Shown here in pieces: positions 12,735-41,033 of a stretch of DNA of 64,000 nt. Positions within the stretch are counted from its first letter, which is position 1. The number at the start of each line of letters is the position of its first letter. The notes under the pieces were generated by a model. It saw only the letters and a list, made by a program, of their open reading frames with translations. It did no database searches and had not been told where the DNA came from. A program made the position numbers and the translations under genes. The stretch is from an uncultured virus (IMG/VR IMGVR_UViG_3300028840_005337) (Duplodnaviria > Heunggongvirae > Uroviricota > Caudoviricetes), in the IMG/VR virus record IMGVR_UViG_3300028840_005337, positions 62,001 to 126,000 of that record; one strand, written 5' to 3'.

Positions 12735-12764
12735 AGTCTACCAGATCTGTCGATCGTGTGTCAA
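12735..12764 (-). promoter_or_regulatory. Sigma70-type promoter for the leftward nucleotide-metabolism operon
   Basis: TTGACA-18 nt-TAGACT on the minus strand. Confidence 0.6.
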
Positions 12765-15160: not shown

Positions 15161-16033
15161 TCATGTGGCCACAAGCCACATAACTTCTGAAGACCAGGCT
15201 GCTCCCAGGTGTGTGCGACACCACCGTCGCAGTGCGTCACCGTCACGGCCCTCTGAGAACTTCCGATAGTACGCTATCGGGTCCATAAAGAGCTGACTGA
15301 CGGGTTTTGCCTCGGCAAATAGTGTCATCATCCTGGACCAATTGAACGCGAAGGCATGGCGCAGCTGGGTGTCGTTGTAGGACACGCGGCCCGCCTGAAT
15401 CTCTTGTTGTACATGACAGACAATCGCCAGTGCGTTGATTGCTGACTCTGCTGTGAAAAGCAGGTCGCCAGCACCGTCGCCGATGGAACCACCATTCTTC
15501 GCCATCCACACGTTATGCGTCGCGCCGTTCAGGTAAGCGACCCACTCGTCTAGGATGTAGAGGGGGATCTGATTCCATTGGCGAGTTCTGCCGATCATGT
15601 ACTGCGCGTACATTCGCGATCTGAGTCCGGTTGGGACATACCGGGCAGCATCCCTGATAGTGCAGGGCCGCGGCTCTTCGATGAGCGCGGTCCTGCCGTT
15701 CAAACAATAGAGTGCGTTTTCCACACCCGTGCCGGCACCATGCTCGTTCCTCATGAGCGAGTTCACACCATGGGTCGCTTCATGCGCCCACGTGCCCAGA
15801 TCTGAGTCACGGTAAGTCGCGGAGCTTGTCAGGCCCGTTGCGGGCAGCCGCGAATCAATGTCCGCCAATACCTGCCCCAACCGTGTGTCGTCTACCGCTC
15901 TGACAACCGGCGCGTAGGTCCACAGCGGTTCACGGGCAGCCTCATTGGAGCGATCGTCGCCGGCAGCGTACATTGGTCCCGCCAGTACGCTGCCGGCTGA
16001 CGCCGCTATGAATGCCCGTCGTGATAGTTTCAT
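15161..16033 (-). CDS. Tat-exported zinc metallopeptidase-like protein
   Basis: MKLSRRAFIAASAGSVLAG twin-arginine signal; AHEATHG and downstream DEWVAY. Confidence 0.65.
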   Translation of the reverse strand: MKLSRRAFIAASAGSVLAGPMYAAGDDRSNEAAREPLWTYAPVVRAVDDTRLGQVLADIDSRLPATGLTSSATYRDSDLGTWAHEATHGVNSLMRNEHGAGTGVENALYCLNGRTALIEEPRPCTIRDAARYVPTGLRSRMYAQYMIGRTRQWNQIPLYILDEWVAYLNGATHNVWMAKNGGSIGDGAGDLLFTAESAINALAIVCHVQQEIQAGRVSYNDTQLRHAFAFNWSRMMTLFAEAKPVSQLFMDPIAYYRKFSEGRDGDALRRWCRTHLGAAWSSEVMWLVAT

Positions 16034-16083
16034 GGCGTCAAATATACCGTTCTTTCGGGATCCGGGGAGGACCAATTTTGTTA

Positions 16084-16854
16084 ATGGAAACAAAATGTGC
16101 GCATGCGCAGCAGGACTGGGCGACAGCCTTACTGCAGCGACACGGCAAACTGATGGAAGTCGAGGAGATGGAGGCCCTCATTAAGAGGGGTAAGGCAGGG
16201 GACGACGACGCGCGGAACCGCGGGATTGCTGGTTGCTACAGGCTGGCCTTTCAACAGGCCTGGCGCGCAGCGTACAACGATCCCCACTTCTCCGTCGACG
16301 ATCTCTTCCAGGAGGCCGTGATCGGCCTCATGAAGGCAGTCGAGCGCTGGCGACCAGAAACGGGCAACCGATTCGTAACCGCTGCTTGGTTCTCGATCCA
16401 TGCCGCAATCTCATGGTACAAAAAGTGCCATAGGCGCCTCGTATACTACCCGCCCCGCTGGGACGAAAAGGGTGTCAAGCGGCCGGACTGGACTAAAGAC
16501 TGTCCGGAGCTGTTTGCAGACTACGTGTCGTTGCATAAACGCGTGGGCACGGGCAATAGGCGAAATCCCGGGATATTCGTGTACGAGATGATTGAAGACG
16601 AGACGCTGCGCGACTTCGTTGCCGACGTCGAGAGCGAGGACCAAGCCGATATGGTCTACGAGGCGTTCGAGAAGTTGACGGAGCGTGAAGTCGACATACT
16701 GCGGCGTCGCTATCTCGGCGACAAGCTTTGGGAGATCGGTAAAGTTTACGGAATCACCCGCGAACGTGTTCGGCAGTTGATCATCAAAGCCGAAAATATC
16801 ATCCACAATCACGTCTTGAAAGAGCAAATCGATGGAGACGCTGGTACTGCTTAA
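16084..16854 (+). CDS. RNA polymerase sigma70-family factor
   Basis: Region 2 DDLFQEAVIGLMKAVERW..GNRFVTAA; region 4 LTEREVDILRRRY..EIGKVYGITRERVRQ. Start uncertain. Confidence 0.92.
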   Translation: METKCAHAQQDWATALLQRHGKLMEVEEMEALIKRGKAGDDDARNRGIAGCYRLAFQQAWRAAYNDPHFSVDDLFQEAVIGLMKAVERWRPETGNRFVTAAWFSIHAAISWYKKCHRRLVYYPPRWDEKGVKRPDWTKDCPELFADYVSLHKRVGTGNRRNPGIFVYEMIEDETLRDFVADVESEDQADMVYEAFEKLTEREVDILRRRYLGDKLWEIGKVYGITRERVRQLIIKAENIIHNHVLKEQIDGDAGTA

Positions 16855-28942: not shown

Positions 28943-31083
28943 TAATCCAGAAGGTCAACCTTCGACATTTCTGCCAGCACATCCAGGAAGAATTCACGCT
29001 GTCGCCTGGGCTCAACATGATCGTTGGGCCCAACGGCAGCGGGAAGACCAACCTCCTGCGTGCTACGCAGTTTCTCGTCACGGGGGACTCGGGCGGCAAT
29101 CGCCCCAAGGCGGACGACGTCTACCAAGGCGTGTTCGGCTCAAACGAGGAGTCCTTTGTGAGCGGCCAGCTGTTGCACGAGGGAACAGTCATTACCCTCA
29201 AGCGTGCGCTCCAGCCGGCGACAGCCAATCTCATGGAGATCGGCGACGAGACCTGGACGTCTGTCAATGCCATTAACAGCGAGCTGTTCCGACGGCTGGG
29301 CACGACGAAGAAGCAGATCCACGACTACATCTTCGTCCGCCAACGCGGCATCGACGAGATGTTCGACCAAAAGCCCGCCGAGCGGGCCGCATCGCTGGCA
29401 TCCCTCTTCGGCCTCGACAAGGCTGAGAAGATCTGGAAGCAGACCGGCGACTTCCTCAAAACGATCGAGGTGCCGACCACGACGTTGAGTCTGGATGAGC
29501 TGAACGCGCAGCACGCTGACATACAGGTGCAGATCACCGAGCTCAACAACCAGTTCGCGGCGCTCCATCTACCACTCGACGGCGACGCCAAGCTTGCGGA
29601 ACATCAAACCGTGATCGACGGCTGTAAGCAGCGTGAGATGCTGATGAACAAGCAGGCGGTCCTGGAGAAGACGCGTGAAGAGACGCTCGCTTCTGCCAAG
29701 GCTGCGATGTCGTACCGGCAACAGTTGCAGACAGAGGCTACGCTGCTGGAGAACGCTATGGCCGCCGTCAGCGTCGAAGCCAATGACGCGCACGGCGAGC
29801 TGGCACGTTGGGACGCGTACGATAAGTCGCTGACAGCGCGCGAGCAGTTCGTCGCCGACGAGCTGGCTTTTCGTACCAAGTGGCCGAGTCATCCGAAGCA
29901 GCCGCGCGAGGTCGCACCGCTCGGTGAGGACCTTGTCGAGGCGTTGAAGGGCTATCGTGCAGTGCGTAACAGTCTCACCAACAGCATCAAAGGCCTGGAG
30001 GATGAGGACGACAACTGTCCGACGTGTGGCCAGCCACTGCCCGAGGCCGACCAGGCCACGGCACGCTTGCAGGAGCTGCACGATCAGCTGCGTGAGTGCG
30101 AGATGGAACGACAGCCGCTCGAGGAACAGCAACGTGCGTACGATCAGTACTGCGCCGAGCTGTTACACTGGCAACGGCAGTGCGAGGAGATGGATAAAGA
30201 GCAGGAAGCCTTGGAGCAACGCAAAGAGGCCCTGCAGCTGGTTGAGCAACCACGCAGCGCGCGTGACGCTCTCCAGGCCGTCATCGACGAGCACACCGAG
30301 TTCTGTGCGGCGCATAAGGAGATCCAGGAGAAGCTTAAGGTGGCGCTTGCTACTGAGGCCAGCCTCGACGCGAAGCTGGACCAGCAAAACCAGACGCACT
30401 TTGAGCAGACCGCGGAGATCGACTCGCTGCATAAGTACACGGCGGAGGCCGCTACCATTGCTCGCCAGGAGTTGCAGCAGCTGAAAGGCCGGCTGGCGCA
30501 GGCCACCGAGCTCGACAAGCAGATCGCTGTGCTGCGCGCCACGCTCGACGGCGTGGAGTCGAAGATCGACGACGTGCGGCGTGTGGAGCAAAAGAGCATC
30601 CGCACTCGGCAGGCTGTCGACCACCTGCAGCGTATCCGAGACATGTACCACCGCAACGAGGCCCCGCGCTTGGTGTCCTACACCTATATCGAGAACATGC
30701 TCGACGAGGTGAACCGAACACTGGAGCTATTCGAGGCGCCTTTCCGGGTGGAGATGGACGAGGATCTGGGCTTCATCTGCCGGTTTACCGATGGTATTCG
30801 GGTGCAGCCCGACAGTCGGCTCTCGGTCGGCGAGCGGATCGTTCTTGCTATGGCGTTCCGCATTACAGTAAACTCTACGTTCGCAGGTCAGGTGGGTGTC
30901 CTCATTCTGGACGAGCCCACTGCCGGCCTTGACGAACACAACCTCGGCTGTCTACCGCACGCCCTGGAACGTCTGCAGGTACTATCTGCAGAGCGTGGAC
31001 TCCAGGTTTTGTTCGTCACGCACGAACCGCGGATTCAGCACCTGTTTGACAACGTCATTACGTTACGAGCCCATGAAAACTGA
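28939..31083 (+). CDS. sbcC: Rad50/SbcC-like ATPase
   Basis: GPNGSGKT, coiled coil with CPTCGQ zinc hook, LSVGE signature, LILDEPT, VTH. Confidence 0.93.
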   Translation: MIIQKVNLRHFCQHIQEEFTLSPGLNMIVGPNGSGKTNLLRATQFLVTGDSGGNRPKADDVYQGVFGSNEESFVSGQLLHEGTVITLKRALQPATANLMEIGDETWTSVNAINSELFRRLGTTKKQIHDYIFVRQRGIDEMFDQKPAERAASLASLFGLDKAEKIWKQTGDFLKTIEVPTTTLSLDELNAQHADIQVQITELNNQFAALHLPLDGDAKLAEHQTVIDGCKQREMLMNKQAVLEKTREETLASAKAAMSYRQQLQTEATLLENAMAAVSVEANDAHGELARWDAYDKSLTAREQFVADELAFRTKWPSHPKQPREVAPLGEDLVEALKGYRAVRNSLTNSIKGLEDEDDNCPTCGQPLPEADQATARLQELHDQLRECEMERQPLEEQQRAYDQYCAELLHWQRQCEEMDKEQEALEQRKEALQLVEQPRSARDALQAVIDEHTEFCAAHKEIQEKLKVALATEASLDAKLDQQNQTHFEQTAEIDSLHKYTAEAATIARQELQQLKGRLAQATELDKQIAVLRATLDGVESKIDDVRRVEQKSIRTRQAVDHLQRIRDMYHRNEAPRLVSYTYIENMLDEVNRTLELFEAPFRVEMDEDLGFICRFTDGIRVQPDSRLSVGERIVLAMAFRITVNSTFAGQVGVLILDEPTAGLDEHNLGCLPHALERLQVLSAERGLQVLFVTHEPRIQHLFDNVITLRAHEN

Positions 31084-32113
31084 TTCGCAGATCCTTAAGC
31101 TGCATGTTGCTCACAAGCAAGTGTGGTATTTGGATGGCATGGATATAGCACGGACCGATGGCCACGCGATCGAGGACTTCCTCGATACAAGCCGGCTACA
31201 GTGCGCCGAGCGGGTCCGCCTGCTCGGTCTCCATGCCAATGCGAGGCTCATTACGGCGTTGTACGACCGCAAGCTCAAAGGTCAGCCCTTGGAGATTGAA
31301 GTCGCATCGCCGTTGGCGTGCGCGTCTGTTGCGGAGCGTCATAACCCAGAGGCTGTGCTGTATCGCATGCGCCTCTTCGAACGCGCTCCGAGTGTCGGCG
31401 GCTTTCATACCGTCACTGAGAACGACTACCGTGCATATGCCCTCGCGGTCGAAACCATGCAGAGCGTCTTTAACAACATGCCAACAACCCAGCAGGCGTT
31501 ACGACTTCTGCGTGCCCATCCAGCGTGGCGCGCAGTGTCGTTCATCCACAGCGTCAACCCCATGGCTGTCGCTGGCCTGCTCAGCTACATGCTCGATCCG
31601 CGGTGGTTCGTTGACCCGTGCTACCCGGACCGTTTGAGTAAGCTGTACATGAGTCTCGGGCTGCATCCAAAGACGCAGGCTGGGGTGACGTTGGGCGGTG
31701 CGCAGCACCGTAACCACAAACGCTGTGCGCTGGTACTGCGTTGCTGGAAAGACAGAACACGTGAGGGCGAGGTGCGCAGCAAGTTCGAAGTCACCGCGCC
31801 TGTCGCCGTGACAGGCAGCTCCGAACTCGGGCTCGCACCGTATGACTTCTCGTGGCGTCAGTGGGGATTGCACATGGGTATCGGCATGGACACCGACATC
31901 GAACCCAATCCTGTCAAGGCGGATCTGCGTGCGTCACAACGCTTCGTGGCCTTCCTGAGGCATACGTGGCTGGATGCGCTTTATCGCGATTCGAGTGCCT
32001 TGCCAGGCGTCAATACCGAACTGTTCCGACCCGGCGATTTCTTCAAGCAACACAAGGAGATCATCGCTTACCAACAGCACGTGGAAGCGACCGAAGGAGA
32101 CAGTTACTGCTGA
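31073..32113 (+). CDS. IS110/Tas (Nop-domain)-like protein, apparently nuclease-dead
   Basis: HPAW..VSFIHSVNPMAVAGLLSYMLDPRWF...RLSKLYMSLGL and C-terminal ADLRASQRFVAFLRHTW resemble the IS110 Transposase_20 region; no DEDD residues evident in the N-terminal domain. Confidence 0.55.
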   Translation: MKTDSQILKLHVAHKQVWYLDGMDIARTDGHAIEDFLDTSRLQCAERVRLLGLHANARLITALYDRKLKGQPLEIEVASPLACASVAERHNPEAVLYRMRLFERAPSVGGFHTVTENDYRAYALAVETMQSVFNNMPTTQQALRLLRAHPAWRAVSFIHSVNPMAVAGLLSYMLDPRWFVDPCYPDRLSKLYMSLGLHPKTQAGVTLGGAQHRNHKRCALVLRCWKDRTREGEVRSKFEVTAPVAVTGSSELGLAPYDFSWRQWGLHMGIGMDTDIEPNPVKADLRASQRFVAFLRHTWLDALYRDSSALPGVNTELFRPGDFFKQHKEIIAYQQHVEATEGDSYC

Positions 32114-32182
32114 CCGTATCTAGTGGTGTTGAAGTTTCTGACCACAAAATATGGGATTGTCAAAACTGCCGGTGTTTATCCG

Positions 32183-32218
32183 TTGACAGGCTCAACAACG
32201 GCAGGTAGTATGCATACT
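32183..32218 (+). promoter_or_regulatory. Sigma70 promoter with a palindromic operator candidate, driving the RAMP gene
   Basis: TTGACA(32183)-17 nt-TAGTAT(32206); perfect palindrome AGTATGCATACT at 32207-32218. Confidence 0.7.
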
Positions 32219-32242
32219 GCCAACGGGCAAAAGGAAGTTCCC

Positions 32243-32695
32243 GTGATCGAAGTAAGGATACAGCTGCGGTTCAATCAGCACTCACTCGGAGACCGCCGAA
32301 CTAAGCAGCTCAACCAGATGCTGCGCGACCCTGACGGCCGTGTAATGTTCATGCCGACCTGGTGGAAGGCATTGATGCGTTATGCGGCTCAAGTTGTCAA
32401 TAGACACCACGATGCTGTCAAAGACATCGACTGGGCGCCCGTCATCGAGGGAACTCCAAGGGAGTACAAACGATTCTACGCCCCGCAGAAGTTCACACTT
32501 CACGAGGCGTTCTTTCCAGGGGACGAGATCATCGTACACGCAGTGCTGCCGACGGAACTTCCTATCGACGACTTCAAGGAGTTGCTTGAGGTGGCCGGCA
32601 AGTACAGAGGCATCAGTCCCTATCGCAAGGATCAGAAGTACGGCACCTTTGATGTCATTGCTGTGACGCGGAGGATCAGGACAAAACCCAAGTAA
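32243..32695 (+). CDS. Stand-alone Cas7/Csm3-like RAMP superfamily protein (150 aa)
   Basis: EVRIQLRF..SLG; RDPDGRVMFMPTWWKALMRYAA; HEAFFPG; C-terminal G-loop AGKYRGISPYRKDQKYGTFDV. Confidence 0.65.
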   Translation: MIEVRIQLRFNQHSLGDRRTKQLNQMLRDPDGRVMFMPTWWKALMRYAAQVVNRHHDAVKDIDWAPVIEGTPREYKRFYAPQKFTLHEAFFPGDEIIVHAVLPTELPIDDFKELLEVAGKYRGISPYRKDQKYGTFDVIAVTRRIRTKPK

Positions 32696-32696
32696 A

Positions 32697-32775
32697 AGAA
32701 AAGGCCCGCTGGTGGCACAGCGAGCCTTTTGTGTTTCACGACCTGCAGGGGCATGCGGTCATGGCGGTATGTTAC
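32697..32775 (-). ncRNA. Candidate ~80-nt small RNA convergent on the RAMP gene
   Basis: Minus-strand TTGACC(32809-32804)-17 nt-TATCAT(32786-32781); internal hairpin CAUGACCGCA/UGCAGGUCGUG; terminator 32699-32730 is fully paired only on the minus strand. Confidence 0.6.
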
Positions 32776-32837
32776 TGCCAATGATAGCGGACCCTGCGCA
32801 TGTGGTCAACCCCGTTGGGGGGACCAAAGGACGCAGA

Positions 32838-36740: not shown

Positions 36741-37858
36741 AATCGGTTACCGGCGTGACCCTGGGCAACGATGCCGCAGGCGCACACGTCATCAACCCGT
36801 TCCTTTACGAGAAGCTCCAGAAACGCTTCGGCGATGTTATCATCGCCAAGCAAGGCGAGCCGATCTACGGGAACTACACGTATGACGGCAGCGGCTTCAA
36901 GTACGACACCCTCGGCGGAGAGTATTATCGCGTCTGCTGCCCGTTCTGCGAGCAGAAGCGCGCGGTGGATACCAAACACCGACTGTGGATCAGCCATCGC
37001 TGGGGCGTCGGCCTCGACGAGGATGACCCGCAGACCAAACTGAAGCCGAACGATCGGTTTTGGTGGGCGTGGGTGTGCTACAACGAGCATTGCGAAGAGA
37101 ACCCGGCGAACACCAAACAGTTGCAGACCTGGGTCTACGGCGGTATCGGCCGGGAGCTACACGCGCCCGCCGTCAAGCTGCAGTTCCACACTGTGCCGAT
37201 GGCGTCGCTCGGACTCGTCGACTGGCCTGGCCGCTGCTTGCGGGTGGACCAGCTGCGACCGGAGCACCACGCATGGCAGTACCTGGCGACCCGCGGCTTT
37301 GACCCCGCGGCAGTTGGCCCACGCTACGGCGTGACGTACTGCGAGAGTGGTTCGGCGCGCTTCCCGATGGCGTTCGGACGGTTGGTGATCCCGATCGTGA
37401 TGAACGGCGATATGGTTGGCTGGCAAGCCCGCCCGCCATATGAAGCAGACTGGAAGACCACCGCCAAGTACTACAACTGTCCCGGCATCAACCGGCGACT
37501 CATGTTGTACGGCTTCGACATAGCCAGGGCGTATCCGTACTGCGTCATAACCGAGGGCGTCACCGACGTGTGGGCTGTCGGCCAGGGGGCGATCTCGCTC
37601 CTCGGCAAGCACATATCCCCGCAGCAGGCAGAGCTGATCGCGCAGAACTGGAAAGCAGCCGTGATCGCTCTCGACCCTGACGCAATGGACCGAGTCGAGC
37701 GTATCCAGCAGCAGCTGGGCAGTATGCCGACGGTGGTCGTGAAACTCCCAGACGGTTGCGATCCAGCTGACATGGATCAGGATCGCTTCTGGGATCTTGT
37801 ATGGCAAAGTTCCGTAAACCAGAATGTTGATCTGTTAGGACTACAGAATGATTCCTGA
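36737..37858 (+). CDS. DNA primase (Zn-binding domain + TOPRIM)
   Basis: CCPFC..WVCYNEHC, RLVIPI..GWQAR, KYYN, ITEGVTD, ALDPDA, DPAD. Confidence 0.9.
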   Translation: MKSVTGVTLGNDAAGAHVINPFLYEKLQKRFGDVIIAKQGEPIYGNYTYDGSGFKYDTLGGEYYRVCCPFCEQKRAVDTKHRLWISHRWGVGLDEDDPQTKLKPNDRFWWAWVCYNEHCEENPANTKQLQTWVYGGIGRELHAPAVKLQFHTVPMASLGLVDWPGRCLRVDQLRPEHHAWQYLATRGFDPAAVGPRYGVTYCESGSARFPMAFGRLVIPIVMNGDMVGWQARPPYEADWKTTAKYYNCPGINRRLMLYGFDIARAYPYCVITEGVTDVWAVGQGAISLLGKHISPQQAELIAQNWKAAVIALDPDAMDRVERIQQQLGSMPTVVVKLPDGCDPADMDQDRFWDLVWQSSVNQNVDLLGLQNDS

Positions 37859-40800
37859 ACTAGGTCTCGACGACCTTCAAGCGATTTTCCGCAACGACGA
37901 GGACAACGAGTACAGTCGGCGCTTTCCGATGTACCCCCTCGTGTCTCCCGGCATGCCGCCGCCTGGCCCGGACTTCATCGCCCACGCGAAAGCGCTCGGC
38001 GATGCTAACCCCTACGTCGTAGAGGGTACGGGCAAGAACAAGCGCGGCATCGAAGCCGGATTCAAGCTGCAGTGCCTGTATCTGAAGGCGCTGTACTCGA
38101 ACGAACTCCACATGCCCATCAAGGTGAAAGGGCGTACCGAGACGGTGCGCATCCTGCCCGGGCATCTCTGGGGCGATCATGCCGAAGGTCCCAAGTACCT
38201 CGAGAACGAGGAGCTGCGGGGACGACCGCGTGTGATGGTTGTTGGAAAGCACCCTGGCCTCGAAGAGATAGGCGAGGGACGCAACTTCGTCGGCCCGTCT
38301 GGCCGGCAACTGAAGGACACGTTGACCGCGCTCGGTCTGAGTGATGCCGAGCTCAATGATTGGTACGTGTGTAACCTGGTGCGTTGGATGAACGTCAATC
38401 CGCAGAGCGGCGCGTTGCCGCAGGCGTGGATCAAGGACTGTCTTCCGCTGCTGCACCAGGAGATCCGGCTGTACCGGCCTGACTATATCCTGTGCCTCGG
38501 GGCCGAAGCGACCAAAGCGGTCATCCCGGGCAACACAGTGAATACCATGGTGGGCCGTTACGTCGAGCGCACTGAGATGCTGCAAGAGTATGGCGAGCCT
38601 GATGACCTGCATACCTCCAAGGTGATGGCCATCACGCATCCGGCGGCTGTGCTGCGTACCACGGAGTTGTACCCGGCGTTCGAAGCCACCCTGCGGAACT
38701 TCATCCAGTTGATCCGTGGCGAGGAGTTTACGAGCGCAGAGAACGACAACATCACGATCCAATACATGTACAAGGAAAGGGAGTTGAAGGAGTACGTTGA
38801 CTACGTCCTTTCTCGCCCTGGGTTGAAAAAGATAGCAGTTGACGGTGAGTGGCACGGCCAGCATCCCGGCGAGCCGGGGTCGTACCTCCGTACGATACAG
38901 GTAAGCCACACCGGCAAGTATGCCGCCGTCATCGTCCTGCGAGGGCAGGGCGGTGGTACTGCGTTTCGACCAGGCATTTCGCGCGCGATCGATCACCTTA
39001 ACCGGCTGCTCGATCGTGACGACGTCCAGATTGGCGGCAGCTTCTTCGCTGCTGACCTTCCGTGGCTTGAACACAACGGCCTGAACATCGCCCACCGCTT
39101 CAAGGTACCGCCCACGGTCGACGAGATCCGCGGCGGTAACTACGCAGGCGGCTTCGACATCGGCTTGGCCCACCACGCCTACAACGAGACCGGTGACTTC
39201 AAGCTGGAAGTCATGGCCTCTCGGTTGTGCGGTGCGCCTCGCTGGGACGTTGCGCTGGGCGAGTGGAAGAAGGCGTACCTCAAGGAGCGGAAGATGAAGG
39301 ACGAGGAGCTCGAAGGGTACGGAGAGTGCCCCGACGAGGTCCTACTGCCCTACGGCGGCAAAGATGCTGCCTACACACGTCAGCTGATGGACAGGCATTG
39401 CAACCTGCTGAACGGCGATCGCTACGGCAACGACTGCTGGATCCCGTTCCATCTGTCCATGATGGCATTCCCGGCCTTCAACGAGATGGGCACGATCGGC
39501 GTCAAGATCGACCCCGAACGCATTGATGAGCTCACCGACCAATTCATCGAAGTGAGCGCCCAGAAGCTGAAGAAGCTTCAGGAGGACATCAACTGGCCGG
39601 CGTTCAACCCTCGAAGTTCACAGCAGTGTGTGGAATTCCTGTTCGGCGAGCGCTACTCTACGCGCCGTGACAAGGACACAGGAGAGCGGCTCAGCGTGCG
39701 TCCAGCGGGCGCCATGACGCTCAACCTGGAGCCCATCAAGTCCACTGGCAAAGGTAAGCCGTGGGGCTGGGTGATGTCCAGAGGCGAACAGGAGAAGTAC
39801 ACGCCGAGTACAGATAAAGAGACATGTGGCATTTTGGGTTTACAACACCCAATGGCGTTACAGCTACGCGACGTGAGGCTGATCGACCAAGTGTTGAAGT
39901 CCGTATTCCGTCCGCCTAAGTACAAGGCAAAATCGACGGAGATCGAACTCGACAGCAATGGCCGACGGATCTACGGCGGTGGCATCGCTAAGTACATATG
40001 CCATGACCAGCGTGTGAGAAGTTCGTTCCAACAAGTGAAGGAAACTGGACGTGCGTCAAGTGCGAGGCCGCCATTACAGAATATCAGTAAGCGTCGCGAA
40101 GACGATTACTCGAGAATCCTGGGTGACCAATACCGCTGGCCAATCCGGTCATTTATCGTCAGCAACACCGACCCCGGCTATGCCGAACCTACCGTCCTTG
40201 TAGAGTCAGACTATAAGGGCGCGGAACTTATGGGGATGGCGGTGATGGCTCGCGATGCGCAAATGTTGGATCACTGCTTACGCGCAAACCTGCCCGATGG
40301 CGATCCGCAGCAATATGATATCCACTCAAATATCGCTGTGACTTCCTTTCAACTTGACTGCGAGGCTAGCAAAGCTGGACTCGCATCGATCAAGCAGAAG
40401 GGCAAGCGCGTTGCTGCGAAAAACATCATCTTCGGCGTAGGCTATGGACGCACCGCGGAGGCGTGCGCCAGGCAGTGCCAGGAAGAAAATGCTCCTATCA
40501 CCGTTGCGGAAGCGCAAAGCATTATCGACACGATCTTCGAGCTCTATCCGGGTATTCCAGCGTTGCAAGAGGCACTCCGTGCCCGCGTCGCTAACCCGGG
40601 ATGGCTTAGAAATTGTTTCGGTAGGTATCGTCGATTCATCAGCACGTCTGATCGAGCGGCGATGGGCGAATTGGAGCGCCAGGCACTGAATTTTCCGTTT
40701 CAGAGTATGGTAGCCGATGCCGTTTCGACGGCGCTATATTGGCTACACAACCATCCTCGTAAAGAGGAACTTGGGTACAAGATTGTCCTCCAGATCCACG

Positions 40801-41033
40801 ATGCGATCGTGCTGGAGGTCCCATGTCGCAGCTTGGACGTGGTACACAACGAGATCCTGCCAGAGTGCATGGTCGACAAAGTGTCCTTCCAGGCATGTGA
40901 CTTAGACGGAGCTCCGTATGCGGACAGTCCGATCTACCGATTTGGGTTGGATCAGGACGTGTTCACGCGATGGGGCTTGAAGTTGACAGAAGAGGAGTGT
41001 GAGCGGTTGGGAATTAGTCCCGATTATATCTAG
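37848..41033 (+). CDS. polA: Family A DNA polymerase with N-terminal uracil-DNA-glycosylase-like domain
   Basis: UDG-like VGKHPG..E..GRNFVGPSG, HPAAVLR; exonuclease AVDGE; pol motifs SDYKGAEL, RVAAKNIIFGVGYG, QIHDAI. Confidence 0.92.
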   Translation: MIPELGLDDLQAIFRNDEDNEYSRRFPMYPLVSPGMPPPGPDFIAHAKALGDANPYVVEGTGKNKRGIEAGFKLQCLYLKALYSNELHMPIKVKGRTETVRILPGHLWGDHAEGPKYLENEELRGRPRVMVVGKHPGLEEIGEGRNFVGPSGRQLKDTLTALGLSDAELNDWYVCNLVRWMNVNPQSGALPQAWIKDCLPLLHQEIRLYRPDYILCLGAEATKAVIPGNTVNTMVGRYVERTEMLQEYGEPDDLHTSKVMAITHPAAVLRTTELYPAFEATLRNFIQLIRGEEFTSAENDNITIQYMYKERELKEYVDYVLSRPGLKKIAVDGEWHGQHPGEPGSYLRTIQVSHTGKYAAVIVLRGQGGGTAFRPGISRAIDHLNRLLDRDDVQIGGSFFAADLPWLEHNGLNIAHRFKVPPTVDEIRGGNYAGGFDIGLAHHAYNETGDFKLEVMASRLCGAPRWDVALGEWKKAYLKERKMKDEELEGYGECPDEVLLPYGGKDAAYTRQLMDRHCNLLNGDRYGNDCWIPFHLSMMAFPAFNEMGTIGVKIDPERIDELTDQFIEVSAQKLKKLQEDINWPAFNPRSSQQCVEFLFGERYSTRRDKDTGERLSVRPAGAMTLNLEPIKSTGKGKPWGWVMSRGEQEKYTPSTDKETCGILGLQHPMALQLRDVRLIDQVLKSVFRPPKYKAKSTEIELDSNGRRIYGGGIAKYICHDQRVRSSFQQVKETGRASSARPPLQNISKRREDDYSRILGDQYRWPIRSFIVSNTDPGYAEPTVLVESDYKGAELMGMAVMARDAQMLDHCLRANLPDGDPQQYDIHSNIAVTSFQLDCEASKAGLASIKQKGKRVAAKNIIFGVGYGRTAEACARQCQEENAPITVAEAQSIIDTIFELYPGIPALQEALRARVANPGWLRNCFGRYRRFISTSDRAAMGELERQALNFPFQSMVADAVSTALYWLHNHPRKEELGYKIVLQIHDAIVLEVPCRSLDVVHNEILPECMVDKVSFQACDLDGAPYADSPIYRFGLDQDVFTRWGLKLTEEECERLGISPDYI

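Follow-up and report, generated by a model that had tools for sequence, protein, structure and literature searches.

A conserved antisense RNA gene and a candidate translational switch at the head of a phage replication operon

The promoter of the lambda OOP RNA lies at the start of replication gene O. The RNA itself, a 77-nucleotide cis-antisense transcript of the phage, is described as targeting cII mRNA through cleavage by RNase III (PMC5415839) and, as far as that account goes, is the nearest phage case in size to the predicted RNA considered here. Among plasmids, the relevant section of one article describes RNAI of pSK41 as a countertranscript of approximately 83 nucleotides, with two stem-loops, a short spacer and a 5' tail free of structure; once bound, it makes the rep leader in RepA_N plasmids form a stem-loop that conceals the ribosome-binding site (PMC5703833). 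The same section describes, for pT181 RNAI and pIP501 RNAIII, an upstream 'pre-emptor' that pairs with the 5' arm of an inhibitory stem unless the antisense RNA covers it (PMC5703833). Small RNAs that serve phage-encoded proteins are of another kind: the VIPR vrRNA is described as a series of 9-16 GGY/NN pentamer repeats (10.64898/2026.04.26.720920), and TIGR units, in the part of the source that concerns them, as two spacers placed between box C and box D (PMC12045711). The RNA-based prophage origins of mycobacteriophages, as outlined in PMC7157519, are a different device.

The locus described here lies within a 64-kb window (the whole stretch of DNA analysed, 64,000 nucleotides) of an uncultured virus record that is 133.6 kb in length and approximately 62% complete. 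Its replication and recombination module runs from SbcD and SbcC through a gene for a 346-residue protein, a gene for a 150-residue RAMP, an SF2 helicase, a 237-residue protein, a DnaB-like helicase and a primase to PolA and a RecA/UvsX-like protein, and the SF2 helicase, being the first gene downstream of the proposed switch, heads the replication operon. Matches to that helicase in annotated phages are remote (about 25-27% over half the length); a longer helicase frame beginning at GTG 32712 was considered and rejected, the gap being open in that frame in just 3 of 17 relatives. PolA carries an N-terminal uracil-DNA-glycosylase-like domain, and the phage also encodes a sigma-70-like factor (window 37848-41033 and 16012-16854). 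Neither ParA (PF13614) nor a tyrosine integrase (PF00589) was found in any of five related genomes, three of them at least 90% complete. The features of the locus are collected in Table 1.

Table 1. Features at and around the RAMP-helicase junction (window positions)
Feature	Position	Strand	Description
TasR/IS110-like protein, 346 aa	31073..32113	+	RuvC-like N-terminal part; model pLDDT 95
Sense promoter	32183..32211	+	TTGACA-17-TAGTAT ahead of the RAMP gene; would supply the target mRNA
RAMP, 150 aa	32243..32695	+	Single domain, Cas7/Csm3-like fold; GTG start; model pLDDT 95
Intrinsic terminator	32694..32730	-	13-bp stem 32730-32699 with one U.G pair, then UUUUCUUUU U run
Predicted antisense RNA, ~80 nt	32696..32775	-	Inferred ends; ~12-nt 5' tail, central hairpin, 6-nt linker, terminator
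Central hairpin of antisense RNA	32737..32763	-	GACC...GGUCG stem; C-rich loop UGCCCC at 32753-32748
Element A (UGCAGGG)	32744..32750	+	Complement of antisense loop; 'pre-emptor', predicted to pair with B in the ON fold
Antisense promoter	32781..32809	-	-35 TTGACC 32809-32804, 17-nt spacer, -10 TATCAT 32786-32781; hexamers conserved in 17/17 core relatives
Element B (CCCUGCGC)	32792..32799	+	Inside the antisense promoter spacer; predicted to pair with A or C
Element C (AGGA-CGCAG)	32828..32836	+	Helicase ribosome-binding region, predicted to be shut by B in the OFF fold
SF2 DNA helicase, 513 aa	32838..34379	+	ResIII + Helicase_C; phrog_16 E 4e-41; start set by homologues

When this locus is set beside the systems above, it displays several characteristics of a plasmid-type countertranscript: conservation points to an antisense RNA with its own promoter and terminator, complementary to the leader of a replication gene, and computation gives two mutually exclusive leader folds in which covering the upstream part closes the ribosome-binding site. 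As regards the features described for pSK41 RNAI, the resemblance extends to complementarity upstream of the start, two stem-loops, a 5' tail and (here as a prediction) sequestration of the ribosome-binding site, and the pre-emptor logic described for pT181 and pIP501 corresponds to the computed competition between A:B and B:C pairing. The layout and logic also match those of the repABC ctRNA, to the extent that these are set out in the source (PMC3155836; Rfam RF00489). The target differs, however, being a phage SF2 helicase at the head of a full replisome operon rather than a plasmid replication initiator; the anti-RBS segment, unlike that of pSK41, lies inside the antisense promoter spacer, and no sequence relationship to pSK41 was seen. 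Whereas the pT181 and pIP501 systems are described as working mainly by termination, a U run precedes the start codon here in 8 of 17 relatives and is absent from the window; and repABC genes are lacking, as is the ParA family in the five genomes mentioned. Unlike OOP, the predicted RNA covers only the non-coding leader, its predicted target being the downstream gene. By analogy, then, the element would work like plasmid countertranscripts while standing outside their sequence families. A window-wide Rfam search gave no match at gathering level; RF00489 itself scored 18.9 bits against a gathering threshold of 50, over the terminator part alone.

Searches with the RAMP yielded 82 loci, of which 71 were analysed after 11 duplicates had been removed by hand, and 59 of these carry a distinct RAMP and a helicase on the same contig. 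At the junction of the two genes, 23 of the 59 relatives have both a minus-strand promoter and a terminator, four have the promoter alone, four the terminator alone and 28 neither; the gap between RAMP and helicase measures 40 nucleotides or less in 28 of the 59. Nearly all element-bearing loci (21 of 23) fall within one clade of the RAMP tree (support 96/73). Statistics were computed on 17 hand-picked, non-redundant and mutually related loci with a median pairwise identity of 0.60; near-duplicates (L007, L022, L028, L031, L035, L039 and L040) were excluded from this set, and five distant loci (L014, L043, L046, L062 and L076) were kept separate. The junctions of those five hold a minus-strand terminator and a weaker, TTGCC-type promoter with no fit to the A/B/C arrangement, and may be diverged or independent versions of the element. 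In L008 the RAMP abuts the helicase even though that locus is nested among element-bearing phages in the RAMP tree, which is likely a loss of the switch.

The minus-strand promoter matches 10 of 12 consensus positions in the window and recurs across the 17 loci with a -35 box of TTGACC (13 loci) or TTGACA (4 loci), positioned 12-33 nucleotides ahead of the helicase start, and a -10 box of the form TAnnAT or TACACT; the background rate of equally high scores was 4 in 175 minus-strand windows of 110 nucleotides taken from within the helicase gene. The pattern TTGAC[AC]-N17/18-TAnn[AC]T has just three matches in the 133.6-kb genome, the antisense promoter among them; the third and sole other match, at 12736-12764 on the minus strand, lies ahead of a minus-strand gene for a 386-residue protein. 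Distances from the -35 box to the helicase start cluster at 12, 20-21 and 29-33 nucleotides, in steps of roughly one helical turn. Among loci that lack the element, a copy of the promoter shifted into the coding sequence was sought within 450 nucleotides and matched in 5 of 32, at inconsistent places.

The terminator stem is uninterrupted in all 17 relatives, ranges from 7 to 16 bp and has its own sequence in each, while the predicted RNA measures 69-95 nucleotides; an inversion of the terminator loop sets the near-identical relatives L021 (3218-3250) and L022 (4662-4695) apart from each other. On the minus side the stem is followed by a U tail (at least 5 T in 9 nucleotides) in all 17 loci; the plus side has one in 4 of 17. 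The window is one of those four, with 7 T in 9 nucleotides, and sense transcripts could there end before element A. The earlier note had drawn its strand argument from a U.G pair in the terminator stem; that pair is present but says little by itself, the fold of the whole RNA favouring the minus strand in 7 of 17 loci and the plus strand in 10, and the U tail is the better strand evidence because of its 17 to 4 distribution. In the window, the region folds with a z of -4.7 on the minus strand and -1.5 on the plus strand. A recount of the central 5-bp helix alone found 98.1% pairing in 11 sequences, and covariation in it was not significant (just one pair had changed on both sides; 59 of 500 shuffles scored as high). 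RNAalifold on MAFFT alignments found five pairs in one alignment and none on the plus-strand alignment, with no consensus structure from which column-wise covariation could be read; so few pairs emerge because stem length varies between loci.

A model of the element (R1, effectively a sequence model, its structure string being out of register and 36.7% paired) returned 24 matches up to E 1 across 64 sources. Every one of the 17 best (E <1e-5) maps to the junction, six of them outside the training set, and the phage's own genome, at the completeness of its record, contains one copy. In four genomes in which the RAMP abuts the helicase, one of them complete, no strong match was found (best E 0.046). 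Conservation and model searches together thus argue for a genuine RNA gene, present in one copy, that need not accompany the RAMP, and make the existence of a conserved minus-strand antisense RNA gene very probable.

That conclusion bears out much of what the earlier note had read from the window alone. All of the motifs it had quoted on the minus strand (TTGACC-17-TATCAT and the hairpin) are present where it had placed them, and its discrete minus-strand small RNA gene, which it had made dependent on conservation of promoter and terminator in homologous loci, gains support from their retention in 17 of 17 relatives. Its single hairpin needs revision, two being predicted (the one at 32763-32737 with the C-rich loop, and the terminator). 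Alignment of homologous junctions, which it had proposed as a search for a conserved scaffold with a variable segment, returned the conserved promoter and terminator; the variable part, however, co-varies with its own plus-strand leader, unlike a free spacer.

The leader that the RNA would cover contains a G-rich element A and a C-rich element B, and A and the ribosome-binding region C are each able to pair with B. When the antisense-covered part of the leader was blocked in computed folds, the cost of opening the helicase start rose from 7.5 to 12.6 kcal/mol, being higher in 14 of 17 loci and lower in one; at the window locus it rose from 7.0 to 13.4 kcal/mol. Analyses of A itself gave a predicted opening cost across the 17 loci of 7.7 kcal/mol with A and 12.6 without it, and a gain from A of 3.3. 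These analyses further demonstrated: (i) that a locus's own A lowers the opening cost more than shuffled versions do in 16 of 17 loci (p 3e-5), and more than the A of other phages do in 16 of 17 (p 1e-4); (ii) that RAMP starts (10 of 16, gain 0.19) and helicase starts of element-less loci (13 of 22, gain 0.29) do not respond in the same test, the opening cost of these 16 and 22 control starts staying at about 8 kcal/mol whether the upstream segment is included or not; and (iii) that duplex energies prefer the locus's own partner for A:B (13 of 17, p 0.002) and for B:C (13 of 17, p 0.006), with no such preference in the control pairing A:C (8 of 17). B reads CCGU or CCAG instead of CCUG in several loci, and its partners change along with it. 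At least four nucleotides of B are common to the constrained ON and OFF folds in all 17 loci, and the ON region gives the better fold on the plus strand (z -2.9, against -1.6 on the minus strand; 13 of 17).

At the window locus alone, the comparison of its own A with shuffles was not significant (p 0.22) and the A:B duplex energy was -17.2 for its own partner against -17.8 for cross-pairings; L037 showed no switch in the own-A test; and shuffles of B gave p<0.05 in 4 of 17 loci for A:B and 6 of 17 for B:C. The plus-strand bias of the duplexes was present in the A:C control as well, and in the five distant hairpin-bearing loci the duplex preference was missing (1 of 5 and 2 of 5). Ahead of the helicase start, 8 of 17 loci have a T-rich run, compared with 1 of 17 RAMP starts (p 0.07) and none in the window; it may be a terminator tail or, for the antisense promoter, an A tract. 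In this genome a 9-nucleotide match (32774-32782 and 32215-32223) also renders the antisense RNA complementary at its 5' end to the RAMP leader, probably by chance because, by eye, it is absent from three relatives compared.

Of 22 element-bearing loci, 21 have a sense promoter that scores 8.5 or more, compared with 8 of 28 loci that lack the element; in the window this promoter converges on the antisense promoter from a distance of 626 nucleotides, and both are strong. A perfect 12-bp palindrome (AGTATGCATACT) overlaps its -10 box within a longer inverted repeat (window 32183-32219), and inverted repeats surround the sense -10 box in several relatives too; the palindrome is possibly an operator.

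The reading that we consider likely, computed from comparison of the 17 sequences, gives a countertranscript encoded in cis the task of regulating how the helicase, first gene of the replication operon, is translated. From 32183 a host-type promoter, itself conserved, would produce an mRNA that reads through the RAMP gene into the helicase operon. In the computed ON state, A and its neighbours would fold with B as one long hairpin and leave the helicase ribosome-binding site open, like an ordinary start. The convergent promoter, belonging to an RNA gene supported by conservation, would then supply the 80-nucleotide RNA, which would pair with the leader, as follows from their perfect complementarity, and remove A; pairing probably begins at the C-rich loop, the proposed point of first contact. 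In the computed OFF state the freed B would pair with the ribosome-binding region and close it, and in the approximately half of relatives in which a U run follows the OFF hairpin, termination may be added. Plasmid copy-number control suggests, by analogy, that the likely purpose would be to cap the supply of helicase, and hence phage replication, by gene dosage.

The earlier note had offered the RNA as the best local candidate for a guide or ligand of the neighbouring RAMP or IS110-like protein, and its labels for those neighbours hold as descriptions of fold (Csm3/Cas7 for the one, TasR/IS110 for the other). The RAMP model matches Csm3, Cmr and Cas7 RAMPs (Foldseek, Csm3/Cas7 E 1.4e-5), gives a VIA Z of 12.3 and rmsd 3.3 with 144 aligned, and shows the VIPR-type feature of a phage-encoded RAMP fold with a single RRM. 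Its profile is matched by 309 representatives, the family was absent from the genome-contig database searched and from annotated phages, and the nearest clusters in the ESM Atlas are unnamed and viral, with a RAMPs family at 0.79 as a lead. The 346-residue protein has its best match in TIGR-TasR 9mty (E 5.5e-4, TM 0.38), followed by TasH and IS110 recombinases, and gives Z 11.3 and rmsd 5.6 with 244 aligned against TasR (VIA). TasR-like proteins combine RuvC with a Nop domain, and the 346-residue protein carries His at position 11 in 32 of 45 sequences, a position that we take to be where the first RuvC acidic residue is expected. In nearly all related loci this gene and the RAMP gene are adjacent between SbcC and the helicase (window 31073-32695), the TasR-like gene fixed between SbcC and the RAMP gene, unlike a mobile element; the IS110 bridge RNA, a two-loop RNA with guides for target and donor, belongs to such an element. 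Thus both neighbours have folds of RNA-guided systems, and the locus recalls what is described of VIPR and TIGR-Tas in placing a phage-encoded minimal RAMP and a TasR-like protein beside a small RNA; some VIPR systems are reported, in the text available, to have a single vrRNA (10.64898/2026.04.26.720920), and 8 of 17 antisense RNAs contain a lone CCA-N8-12-UG motif. A guide or ligand function is nonetheless improbable, and the RNA is probably not a guide: it has no room in 28 of 59 RAMP loci and is dispensable across the protein family, it is single-copy and free of GGY/NN repeats, the four RAMP-abutting genomes (one complete) lack a strong match, and its variable part is tied to its own leader. 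Moreover, the characteristic arrays are missing, with no TIGR, VIPR or CRISPR-period array found in the 133.6-kb genome (~62% complete). There, GGY/NN pentamer repeats reach at best 5 of 10 GGY, and no trinucleotide repeated at period 5 attains 6 of 10 (among related loci one contig pair alone reaches 6 of 10), and the search for dual-spacer arrays of box C (CCA) and box D (UG), which could miss diverged motifs, gave one triple motif against 0-1 per shuffle in 10 shuffles; just 1 of 17 antisense RNAs has a tandem box C/D-like pair. Complements of the RNA body elsewhere in the phage's own genome, which the earlier note had suggested seeking, are near chance (one 12-mer match against 0.6 expected).

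Two strong convergent promoters, the OOP precedent of a 77-nucleotide cis-antisense RNA that works via RNase III cleavage (as described in PMC5415839) and the clustered promoter-to-start distances, with their hint of phasing at the DNA level, might together suggest that the locus works mainly by transcriptional interference or duplex-triggered decay, the plus-strand pairings being secondary. As the main mode of action this is unlikely, since it leaves unexplained both the mutual tuning of A, B and C within each genome and the unusually closed helicase starts in the absence of A, although such interference or decay can operate alongside the translational switch. Less is to be said for a DNA element (an operator or origin-like hairpin) or a protein-sensing leader, for example one bound by the RAMP, with the antisense RNA incidental. 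The ON hairpin does form an imperfect inverted repeat whose centre falls close to where the antisense RNA starts, and the same transcript also carries the gene for a putative RNA-binding protein, but the better folding of the plus strand, the complete promoter-terminator unit kept on the minus strand and a cumulative GC skew that makes no turn at this locus render such an explanation highly improbable. A chance promoter beside an ordinary terminator of the RAMP gene would be suggested by scans of the single locus, in which promoter-like sites (3 in 10 kb vs 2.8 in shuffles) and terminator-like sites (10 in 10 kb vs 7.7) are near chance, and by the possibility that the window's terminator copy acts in both directions. 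The promoter is above chance by virtue of its conservation in relatives, not by those scans, and its recurrence at one and the same position in all 17 divergent loci (against the 4 in 175 background), together with a minus-side U tail in every one, makes coincidence barely credible. Countertranscript control of helicase translation thus remains the reading that we prefer.

Pre-emptor antisense control is known for plasmid initiators. No title or abstract opening in the literature searched, which mostly excluded subscription papers, dealt with such control of a phage helicase operon, none was found on a standalone phage RAMP with a helicase, and 'RAMP' is absent from the available text of a genomic language-model survey (10.64898/2026.10.21.760802). 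The switch is compact, its promoter spacer doubling as the anti-RBS arm, and seventeen natural variants make it testable by reporter. The locus also exposes a conserved pair of RAMP and TasR-like genes inside a replication module, no array having been found. That phages of approximately 200 kb cap their replication by a plasmid-style switch while the co-transcribed RAMP (and perhaps the TasR-like protein) binds or processes the RNA or its leader is a doubtful extension; if that reading of the RAMP were true, a Cas7-like protein would act in replication control rather than defence, and a persistent, copy-controlled state would be implied for a phage family in which neither ParA nor tyrosine integrase was found in five genomes. 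If the switch itself is real, a family of large uncultured phages throttles its whole replisome with an 80-nucleotide RNA, which would suggest dosage-controlled replication, slow or in a carrier state, and possible incompatibility between related phages.
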